From IMG/VR virus record IMGVR_UViG_2778261692_000003, positions 1 through 40,582 of that record: 40,582 bases of DNA; one strand, given 5' to 3'. Every line of letters starts with the position of its first letter. The first letter of the stretch is position 1. Below are positions 1,159 through 2,511 of the stretch, in pieces. This DNA comes from a virus. Taxonomy: Duplodnaviria; Heunggongvirae; Uroviricota; Caudoviricetes. The notes below the pieces were generated by a model that was not told where the DNA came from, did not search any database, and saw nothing but the letters and a program-made list of their open reading frames with translations. The position numbers and the translations under genes are program-made.

Positions 1159-1370
1159 TCCACATTAACTATCGAATGACACAAATCATTGCAATCCAGT
1201 GCAAAGCTTTGTGTGTTTTGTAGACATTGTCGTTGAAAGATGAGATGTATCAATTCAACAACTCAGTGAATTTTTCTTATGTTTCATATAGGAAAAATTT
1301 ATAATGGATTACTATGGATTTTATCGCATAATCATGTGAATGACATTTACAGAAAGTGATCGGTTTAATA

Positions 1371-2489
1371 ATGAACAATAAACTTAGCTCAGTACAGATA
1401 CTTAGAGGATTAGCTGCATTGTCTGTAGTTCTTTTTCACTACAGATTTTGGTTATCACCATTGTATGGAGATTTAACTATCCCTAATAAATATTTATCTT
1501 GGGGTTCTGCTGGTGTTGATTTGTTCTTCGTAATAAGTGGTTTTATTATGATGCATATCACTAGCCGTAAGCCATCTGGTATAAAGTCTGCTATATTCTT
1601 TTCCGTAGAAAGACTCACAAGGATTTTTCCTACATATTTTATTGCTCTCTTTACAGCTTTCTACTTTACATGGGAAGTTGGAATCTTCGTTGACCAAGCT
1701 AAGGTGGAAAATTTACTGAGTGCTTTAACATTCTCTCCTTTTACGGATGCGTACCCTCCTTTGTATGTTGATGCTGGTGGTATATTTGTTATTAGATGGA
1801 CGCTTAACTATGAATTATACTTCTATCTTGTATTCGCACTTTGTTTATTATTCAATAAAAGAACCTCTGGCATAGTCGTATGGATAATGACAACTATCCT
1901 TGTAGGATATATGTTGACTGGAAATGTAACATTATCCACTTCAGGTTATAAAACTGGTACTCCAGAACTTAGCTTTTTAACAAATCCGATAGTAATTGAA
2001 TTTGCTTTAGGCATCCTTGCTGGGCACACAGTTCGTTCAGCAAAATCATGGAGCAATAGATTAAAATACTCATTCACTGCTATATCGGCATTAATTTTTA
2101 TGACTGCAGTCTTCAATGGTTCTATTGAAGGTTATAATTTAAAGACAGGCATCATTGCATACTTCCTCTTAGTGGCGTTCGTAATAAATGATGAAGTTAT
2201 AACAAAAATTACACCATCATTTTTTGTAATGCTTGGTGATATTTCCTTCTCATGGTATCTGCTTCATAACCAGGTAGGTAGTTACATTTCATGGCAGGTT
2301 GAGGCTAATAATCCAGGTGTGATGCACAATGTATACGGGTTCACTATTTTACTAATTTTATCAATTTTTATTGCATTTCTTTCGCATAAATATATTGAAG
2401 TGATACTTACTAACAAGATTAGAAATAAGATATTTATGAGCATCCCTGGTAAACTGGTGGATATGAGGAAAGTAAAACAGGGGGAATAA
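1371..2489 (+). CDS. oac: Acyltransferase family 3 integral membrane protein, O-antigen acetyltransferase-like (lysogenic conversion)
   Basis: Multi-TM ORF with acyltransferase-3 N-terminal signature (VQILRGLAALSVVLFHY, GVDLFFVISGF); markedly AT-rich versus flanks; ATG at 1371 preferred over GTG at 1356. Confidence 0.75.
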   Translation: MNNKLSSVQILRGLAALSVVLFHYRFWLSPLYGDLTIPNKYLSWGSAGVDLFFVISGFIMMHITSRKPSGIKSAIFFSVERLTRIFPTYFIALFTAFYFTWEVGIFVDQAKVENLLSALTFSPFTDAYPPLYVDAGGIFVIRWTLNYELYFYLVFALCLLFNKRTSGIVVWIMTTILVGYMLTGNVTLSTSGYKTGTPELSFLTNPIVIEFALGILAGHTVRSAKSWSNRLKYSFTAISALIFMTAVFNGSIEGYNLKTGIIAYFLLVAFVINDEVITKITPSFFVMLGDISFSWYLLHNQVGSYISWQVEANNPGVMHNVYGFTILLILSIFIAFLSHKYIEVILTNKIRNKIFMSIPGKLVDMRKVKQGE

Positions 2490-2499
2490 TCCCCCCCCC
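2480..2499. terminator. GC hairpin (GGGGG-AATAAT-CCCCC) with C9 homopolymer between convergent oac and tailspike genes
   Basis: Inverted repeat read directly; oac stop codon lies in the loop; T-rich flank on the minus-strand side. Confidence 0.4.
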
Positions 2500-2511
2500 A
2501 CAGCATAAATC

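Follow-up and report, generated by a model that had tools for sequence, protein, structure and literature searches.

The DNA analysed here (the window; 40,582 nt, IMG/VR record IMGVR_UViG_2778261692_000003) comprises an entire prophage, whose IntS/TorI module is that of Sf6, HK620 and KplE1. Between the integrase gene and the tailspike gene lies a gene for a membrane acyltransferase of the acyltransferase-3 (AT3) family (positions 1371-2489, plus strand; 372 residues), which converges on the gene for a P22-type tailspike (2512-4317, minus strand; 601 residues). The two stop codons flank a G/C-rich element that includes a tract of nine C residues (2491-2499). The initial annotation had described a strongly AT-rich acyltransferase gene in this position, with a G5-AATAAT-C9 hairpin containing the stop codon between the convergent genes. 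We found this description to be fully correct, and located the hairpin at 2480-2499.

The AT3 protein matches the Pfam family PF01757 (Acyl_transf_3), to which the initial annotation had assigned it, with an E-value of 6e-23 and a score of 81.9 bits, compared with a cut-off of 31. The match is nearly complete, residues 12-342 covering profile positions 3-323 of 326. PHROG 3333, described as 'O-acetyltransferase', matches over the full length of the protein (E=2e-89). The protein contains the motifs R12-X10-H23, FFVISG (residues 52-57) and RLTR (residues 81-84). In alignments of 31 and 53 AT3 sequences, one of which includes Sf6 Oac, the residues R12, H23, F52, F53, I55, S56, G57, R81, R84, E148 and G214 are invariant. 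The R/K-X10-H motif in transmembrane helix 1, the FFxISG motif in transmembrane helix 2 and the RxxR motif have proved essential in mutagenesis experiments on OafA and Oac (PMC7448272).

An AlphaFold2 (AF2) model of AT3 is all-helical, with helices over residues 6-356, a mean predicted local distance difference test (pLDDT) score of 87.2 and a predicted template modelling (pTM) score of 0.86. The best explanation of this model is an inner-membrane acyltransferase of roughly ten helices. The top matches among solved structures in a Foldseek search are to human HGSNAT, a transmembrane acetyl-CoA transferase (probability 1.0, TM-score 0.48), in agreement with the published unification of AT3 and TmAT proteins (PMC12423673). 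A sequence search of the PDB found no solved AT3 structure. Pfam detected neither an SGNH domain nor any other second domain in the protein, which therefore has an AT3-only architecture, like Oac.

The AT3 open reading frame (ORF) ends at 2489 and could start at either 1356 (GTG) or 1371 (ATG). Position 1371 is the start common to three diverged lineages, represented by the window, by Salmonella prophages and by a locus referred to below as L013; the codon is ATG in the window and GTG in the other two. Measured from this start, the distance to the stop is exactly 1119 nt in all three lineages. The ATG codons at 1303 and 1341 were rejected as AT3 starts, being out of frame here though fused to AT3 in other lineages. 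They open short frames (1303-1338 and 1341-1382) that are closed or out of frame in the window; in Salmonella and L013, 1-nt indels join such upstream frames to the AT3 ORF, which accounts for annotated AT3 lengths of 395 and 382 residues.

The ratio of non-synonymous to synonymous substitution rates (dN/dS) of AT3 between the lineages is 0.05-0.10, indicating that the gene is maintained by selection. Its GC content of 34.3% (29% at third codon positions, GC3) is the lowest in the window; windows of the same size elsewhere in the prophage have a mean of 48.0%, a standard deviation of 3.5% and a minimum of 38%. No short tandem repeats were found inside the ORF. Homology and genomic context support the view that AT3 is an intact gene in a classic lysogenic-conversion slot.

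Upstream of AT3, a non-coding block (1284-1350, plus strand) is conserved more strongly in the three-lineage alignment than the coding sequence, and a 17-mer, TTTATYGCATAATMATG, is exactly preserved in 34 of 34 close loci. The block contains a candidate AT3 promoter, with a putative -35 element TGGATT (1305-1310), a 16-nt spacer and a putative -10 element CATAAT (1327-1332); transcription from it would be predicted to start near 1339. DNA homology to L013 begins at 1319, just upstream of this -10 element. A TATAAT sequence at 1300-1305 lacks a usable -35 element. Only two GATC sites are present in the upstream region.

The tailspike consists of an N-terminal head-binding anchor of the P22 type (3928-4317, minus strand; PF09008, E=4e-67) and a receptor-binding domain (RBD) with a pectate-lyase-like β-helix recognised by Pfam (residues 131-601; 2512-3927, minus strand). 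Beyond the assigned start the tailspike ORF remains open to 4365. Sequence matches in the PDB were found for the anchor (Sf6 gp14 and the N-terminal domain of the P22 tailspike), and no solved homologue of the RBD was detectable by sequence. The GC3 of the RBD, 27.5%, is close to the 29% of AT3; that of the integrase gene is 53%. Spikes of lytic phages from other genera, among them hz69, GZMU_E2010 and the Kuttervirus 'tail spike protein 2' of PhiSH19 and SE14, share 46-51% identity with the RBD.

Searches with megablast and blastn found no copy of the AT3 gene in 50,697 phage records and 5,426 complete RefSeq E. coli genomes, and the best protein matches in sequenced phages have at most 28.7% identity. 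Relatives at least 90% identical to AT3 form a cluster of 40 variants, which come from E. coli wherever the source gives a name; just two of these variants occur in 118 and 87 collection blocks, respectively. Assemblies with AT3 include GCA_028883555.1, GCA_012683985.1, GCA_003470965.1, GCA_012457085.1 and GCA_002226355.1. AT3 converges on the same tailspike in all of the 22 near-identical loci that we examined. The prophages bearing the pair are found in three integration contexts: argW with IntS, bioA-ybhB, and dacD-sbmC-yeeA. At the bioA-ybhB loci (L003, L004, L189, L193) and the dacD-sbmC-yeeA loci (L192, L196, L198), the last 60-90 nt of intS are all that remains of this gene upstream, so that the integration module has been exchanged and the end with the conversion gene and the spike retained.

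More distant loci reveal which parts of the region travel together. P22-like prophages of Salmonella can be aligned without a break to window positions 1284-4569 at 79% identity, an interval that takes in the upstream block, AT3 and the hairpin as well as the tailspike in full; the Salmonella spike is 82% identical overall to that of the window. In the third lineage (L013-L016) AT3 is 79% identical, and the spike is 78% identical at the amino-acid level from residue 131 onwards. The anchor of the L013 spike is of another Pfam family (Tail_spike_N), and the gene adjoins that of a GpJ-like tail protein; at the DNA level, L013 is homologous to the window over 1319-3632. No match to the flanking sequence of L013 was found in E. 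coli. The L013-L016 lineage is not from E. coli, and its cluster names point to Citrobacter. AT3, the upstream block, the hairpin and the RBD thus behave as one transferable low-GC module (approximately 1319-3930), in keeping with the similarly low GC3 of AT3 and the RBD. The module has passed from one phage backbone to another and among E. coli, Salmonella and a third host that is not E. coli.

A wider survey of AT3 relatives in IMG/VR showed a convergent ORF just downstream in 60 of 80 cases, and six of the ten large downstream convergent ORFs tested encode tail-fibre or tailspike domains. These more distant relatives are often located at prophage ends. One Salmonella enterica locus (L005, GCA_005997165.1, 5540-9188) contains two different AT3 genes in tandem, annotated as 363 and 395 residues. 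The first of them is only 25% identical to the window AT3. The locus also contains an 83-residue resolvase/HTH_7-like fragment and a second 3' remnant of int, which suggests that conversion cassettes accumulate stepwise at int 3' ends.

That enzyme and spike act on a common glycan is best supported, on the data available, by the co-inheritance of AT3 and the RBD. We consider it likely that AT3 is an accessory gene for lysogenic conversion whose product acetylates the O-antigen bound by the phage's own tailspike, and that the hairpin is a terminator. The acetyltransferase reading of the initial annotation is thus retained, on the homology and context of an intact AT3 gene that occupies the Sf6 slot and is co-inherited with an RBD; the C-tract switch that it implied is not. 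In the mechanism we propose, acetyl-CoA would bind at the cytoplasmic face of the membrane via R12-X10-H23 and R81-x-x-R84, and the acetyl group would cross by way of the AT3 pore and be transferred, on the periplasmic side, to a hydroxyl group of an O-antigen sugar. The acetylated O-antigen would be a poor substrate for the β-helix tailspike of the same phage, so that lysogens may be protected against superinfecting phages with this specificity and may display an altered O-epitope. There is precedent for such an effect, as Sf6 Oac and BTP1 OafB block the tailspikes of their own phages (PMC9558356). The layout is also of the Sf6 type, with AT3 located between int and the tailspike gene, convergent with the latter and bracketed by terminators.

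Which glycan is recognised can be approached through the only one of the 5,426 complete E. coli genomes that carries the RBD, that of QML220601 (99.9% DNA identity). The O-antigen cluster of this strain contains wzx and wzy of the O15 family together with fnlA, wbjC and wecB for L-FucNAc synthesis, and no acetyltransferase gene. O15 wzy occurs in 100 of the 5,426 genomes (1.8%). We tentatively suggest that the target may be an O15-type O-antigen, a coincidence that is suggestive but comes from a single genome (n=1). The O15 structure of E. coli is reported to be the same as those of Salmonella IIIb O59 and Citrobacter O35; this identity, if true, would suit the spread of the module over three genera.

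A number of observations weigh against AT3 being an acetyltransferase for the O-antigen of its host. A search of NCBIfam with the AT3 protein gave no family or equivalog match. Sf6 Oac is 26% identical to AT3 over the N-terminal ~190 residues only, about half of the protein; AT3 is not an orthologue of Oac (OacB/C/D group), but a member of a different subfamily in the same superfamily. A standard sigma-70 scan found no promoter upstream of AT3, and the candidate promoter described above, which is the best from a relaxed scan, is weak, fitting the consensus at 8 of 12 positions. With its very high AT content, the gene might be subject to silencing by H-NS. The link to O15 comes from one genome, which itself lacks the AT3 gene. 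Some close relatives of AT3 are located outside prophages, for example L017 (62% identity), which lies among ordinary chromosomal genes. Finally, the range of targets that AT3 proteins are known to acylate extends to capsules, osmoregulated periplasmic glucans, peptidoglycan, the lipooligosaccharide core and antibiotics, so the substrate is not readable from the sequence.

Given this diversity of substrates (PMC9558356), AT3 could conceivably acylate some other envelope glycan, such as a capsule or K antigen, colanic acid, enterobacterial common antigen, the lipopolysaccharide core or periplasmic glucans, and lie next to the tailspike gene merely because this is an accessory slot. One relative (P0063) is indeed labelled OpgC by its source, and the non-phage context of the 62%-identical relative would suit such a role, as would the ability of β-helix tailspikes to target capsules as well as O-antigens. 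However, AT3 moves with the RBD, and not with the anchor or the remainder of the phage, and does so at matching divergence, as expected if the two have a common target. Were the target of the spike a capsule, the logic of a shared target would hold with a different glycan. The sole complete genome with the RBD has an O15 O-antigen cluster. We therefore regard a substrate unconnected with the tailspike as unlikely, and acetylation of the O-antigen bound by the tailspike as the better account of the locus.

QML220601 is informative in another respect. A segment of 1289 bp (window positions 1176-2464, plus strand) is missing from this strain, as defined by the break points of the blastn alignments (1-1175 and 2465-4331) and by the junction sequences. 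The missing segment includes the int terminator, the AT3 promoter region and the AT3 gene except for its last 24 nt, and the junction has TAT(C)GA microhomology. In QML220601 (L001, NZ_CP132063.1, 5990-6051) the intS stop codon is followed by TCCACATTAACTATCGA, then by GGAAAGTAAAACAGGGGGAATAAT-C9, and then by the same tailspike gene. We rejected the possibility that this arrangement represents an ancestral empty site, since the last 24 nt of AT3 are still present and the widely conserved int terminator is gone; QML220601 is a deletion derivative.

The loss of AT3 from QML220601 and its absence from the 5,426 complete genomes might be taken to mean that the gene is a silent or decaying passenger, AT-rich foreign DNA that is silenced in the lysogen and has no phenotype. 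A very low GC content and the weakness of the candidate promoter would be in keeping with this, and in one assembly AT3 is split into fragments of 129 and 233 residues with neighbouring accessions from one strain (P0129, P0133). Decay is difficult to reconcile with strong purifying selection, with a length conserved over three lineages, with the integrity of all catalytic motifs, and with the conservation of the upstream non-coding block. AT3 is also intact in the close loci listed, which come from roughly two hundred collection blocks. A passenger without function is thus very unlikely, and we continue to regard AT3 as a functional conversion gene.

On the plus strand, the hairpin between the convergent genes consists of G5 (2480-2484), the loop AATAAT (2485-2490) and C9 (2491-2499); the AT3 frame enters the hairpin and ends at the TAA codon in the loop (2487-2489). 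Read on the minus strand, the sequence is G9-AUUAUU-C5 followed by UGUUUUACUUUCCU. Of the two strands, a consensus scan recognised a terminator-like structure on the minus strand alone, with UGUUUUACUUU coming directly after the stem (U-run, TGTTTTACTTT); on the plus strand the stem has no U-run behind it. The intrinsic-terminator-like element of the tailspike/late transcript thus defined spans 2466-2499 on the minus strand. The pattern GGGGG-N6-CCCCC has a single occurrence in the 40.6 kb window and none in 100 dinucleotide shuffles. The energy of the fold is unremarkable (z about -1 compared with shuffles that keep the G and C runs), and we take the hairpin to be real because it is conserved across lineages, not because of its energy. 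The Salmonella hairpin is CAGGGGG-CATAAC-CCCCCTG and that of L013 is GGGGGC-GTAA-GCCCCC, each with the TAA stop codon in its loop. In Sf6, the positional analogue is a bidirectional terminator, GGGGCCATATGGCCCC.

The restriction of terminator-like features to the minus strand suggests that the hairpin serves the tailspike/late operon. The hairpin is unchanged in QML220601, and its retention after the loss of AT3 indicates that it still serves the spike. It is best read as a shared terminator of convergent genes, which would act mainly on the minus-strand tailspike/late transcript. An antisense ORF overlapping the hairpin (2282-2506) was considered as a gene and rejected, as its frame shifts with the length of the C-tract.

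The C-tract (2491-2499, plus strand) is the sole G or C homopolymer of at least seven residues in the window; 8 of 100 shuffles contain one. The suggestion in the initial annotation that it might be a slippage site proved correct to the extent that its length varies. In 25 independent E. coli loci we read C7 nine times, C8 five times, C9 nine times and C10 twice, with the caveat that errors in homopolymer assembly may account for some of these length calls. The tract in Salmonella is C6. There are two loop alleles, AATAAT and AATAA, each of which spans tract lengths from C7 to C10. A further locus, L181 (GCA_050420195.1, 4119-5488), was left out of the count because its tract is disrupted by an insertion sequence encoding a DDE_Tnp_1 transposase of 370 residues, which has entered the C-tract between GGGGGAATAACCCC and ATAAGCGC.

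The tract is situated past the AT3 stop codon and short of the tailspike stop codon (2512-2514), and the AT3 and tailspike ORFs are intact at each tract length seen. Since the tract lies outside both reading frames, slippage cannot phase-vary AT3 or the tailspike. Moreover, the invariant G5 arm limits the stem, so that additional C residues do not give a longer helix. We conclude that the C-tract is mutationally unstable and that its variation in length is probably neutral.

A regulatory effect that leaves both frames untouched can be imagined. Tract length or the T-to-C loop allele might act as a population-level rheostat of convergent transcription, through the register of the hairpin or the efficiency of the terminator, and tune antisense read-through of late/tailspike transcripts into AT3 or the reverse. 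This would couple O-antigen acetylation to the induction state of the prophage. We think it highly improbable. Scarcely credible is a phase-variable conversion gene in which slipped-strand mispairing at C9 toggles the acyltransferase or the tailspike: the tract is polymorphic and other surface acetyltransferases are phase-variable (H. influenzae oafA through repeats, Salmonella oafB through an epigenetic switch; PMC9558356), but the geometry refutes a coding switch, both ORFs are intact at all tract lengths seen, the limiting G5 arm is fixed, tandem repeats are absent from the AT3 ORF, and the only two upstream GATC sites do not resemble the arrangement in gtr operons.

It is instructive to compare the locus with known conversion systems. 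Sf6 Oac (gene 15) comes from the same phage group, with the same IntS/TorI recombination module, and shares with the window AT3 the AT3-only architecture and the motifs R-X10-H, FFxISG and RxxR. In Sf6, too, int and the acetyltransferase gene converge on the tailspike gene with a G/C-rich hairpin in between, the annotated features being tailspike, terminator, oac, oac promoter and int. The two proteins differ in length (333 residues in Sf6, 372 here), in PHROG family and, as their low identity shows, in sequence. The Sf6 terminator is wholly intergenic and has T-runs on both sides, whereas in the window the loop contains the AT3 stop codon and a U-tract is found on the minus strand only. The tailspike RBD and the presumed O-antigen are also different.

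OafB (GtrC family II) of the Salmonella prophage BTP1 and OafA are likewise AT3 proteins encoded on prophages or islands, whose products block the cognate tailspike (PMC9558356), and they share the catalytic motifs of the AT3 domain with the window protein (PMC7448272). In OafA and OafB, unlike in the AT3-only protein described here, the AT3 domain is fused to a periplasmic SGNH domain, and there is an 11th helix. Phase variation of oafB depends on Dam and OxyR; the window AT3 lacks a signature of this kind. The gtrABC cassettes of P22 and of K-12 KplE1/CPS-53 occupy the same accessory slot beside the tailspike gene or int and also modify the O-antigen receptor; in KplE1 the arrangement is intS-gtr. 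The gtrABC products, which are unrelated to AT3, act by glucosylation through Und-P-Glc.

NeuO of CUS-3, an O-acetyltransferase of the K1 capsule, likewise brings about conversion, and the P22-like prophage that encodes it has a backbone very similar to that of the window. It modifies the glycan recognised by the CUS-3 spike itself. NeuO is a soluble hexapeptide-repeat enzyme, whereas AT3 is a membrane protein. NeuO is phase-variable by means of heptanucleotide repeats within its ORF; the C-tract of the window is outside the AT3 ORF.

As annotation, the assignment of AT3 is routine: it is an ordinary but intact conversion gene, and prophage AT3 acetylases that shield the receptor from a tailspike have been known since Sf6. 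Of wider interest is the portable cassette of enzyme and spike, complete with promoter block and terminator, which moves between a podovirus-type and another tailed-phage backbone. The pairing of AT3 and RBD could be used by annotators to predict the glycan of an orphan AT3. QML220601 amounts to a natural knock-out, in which the spike and the O15 cluster are retained and AT3 is gone, and could be compared directly with lysogens bearing AT3. If the target is indeed O15, unrecognised O-acetyl variants of this serogroup may exist in the few hundred strains with AT3. The C-tract serves as a caution that a polymorphic homopolymer beside a gene for surface modification does not necessarily act as a switch for phase variation.

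The best explanation of the window as a whole is a Sf6/HK620-like prophage (Lederbergvirus-type) integrated at argW. P22-like coliphages, among them 720R6, Kapi1, IME10, CUS-3 and Sf101, match large parts of the backbone at 95-97%. The IntS-type tyrosine integrase (1-1158, plus strand; 385 residues) has arm-binding, central and catalytic domains (Pfam Arm-DNA-bind_3, Phage_int_M and Phage_integrase), and its ATG codon is at window position 1. In related lysogens the gene order is yfdC - tRNA-Arg - int, and no tRNA gene was found in the window. Because attP is upstream of int in the IntS/TorI module, int, the conversion gene and the tailspike gene remain neighbours once the phage has integrated.

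The integrase gene is followed by a terminator (1179-1220, plus strand) consisting of a hairpin (1179-1214), ACACAAAtC...GCTTTGTGT, and a T-run behind it, GTTTTG; the fold has an energy of -14.3 kcal/mol (z=-2.1). More than 500 E. coli genomes retain positions 1159-1216 in the position 3' of int, and the annotation of HK620 has a terminator in the same place. A search of Rfam with positions 1-5000 returned nothing at E<=1. At the other end of the prophage, an ORF for a TorI/Xis-like (TorI/AlpA-like) excisionase is found at ~38606-38805, with the attR side at ~38.6-38.9 kb. The window ends in a host gene for an oligosaccharide permease of the LacY/CscB type in the major facilitator superfamily (39335-40582, minus strand; TIGR00882, E=9e-179) and so includes chromosomal DNA past attR.

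Two genes on the far side of the tailspike differ between related prophages. A protein of 797 residues in the position of the P22 gp16-type DNA-ejection protein (4789-7182, minus strand) carries an SLT lytic transglycosylase domain at its N terminus (E=3e-25). In related loci, counterparts of equal length are recorded as SLT plus Phage_P22_gp16, and others, of 665-759 residues, as the gp16 family only. Directly upstream of the tailspike gene there is a Mnt/Arc-type repressor gene (4406-4699, plus strand) with no adjoining ant or arc gene. Related prophages have antirepressor (P22_AR), Arc or P63C genes at this position, indicating that the immI region is highly mosaic.

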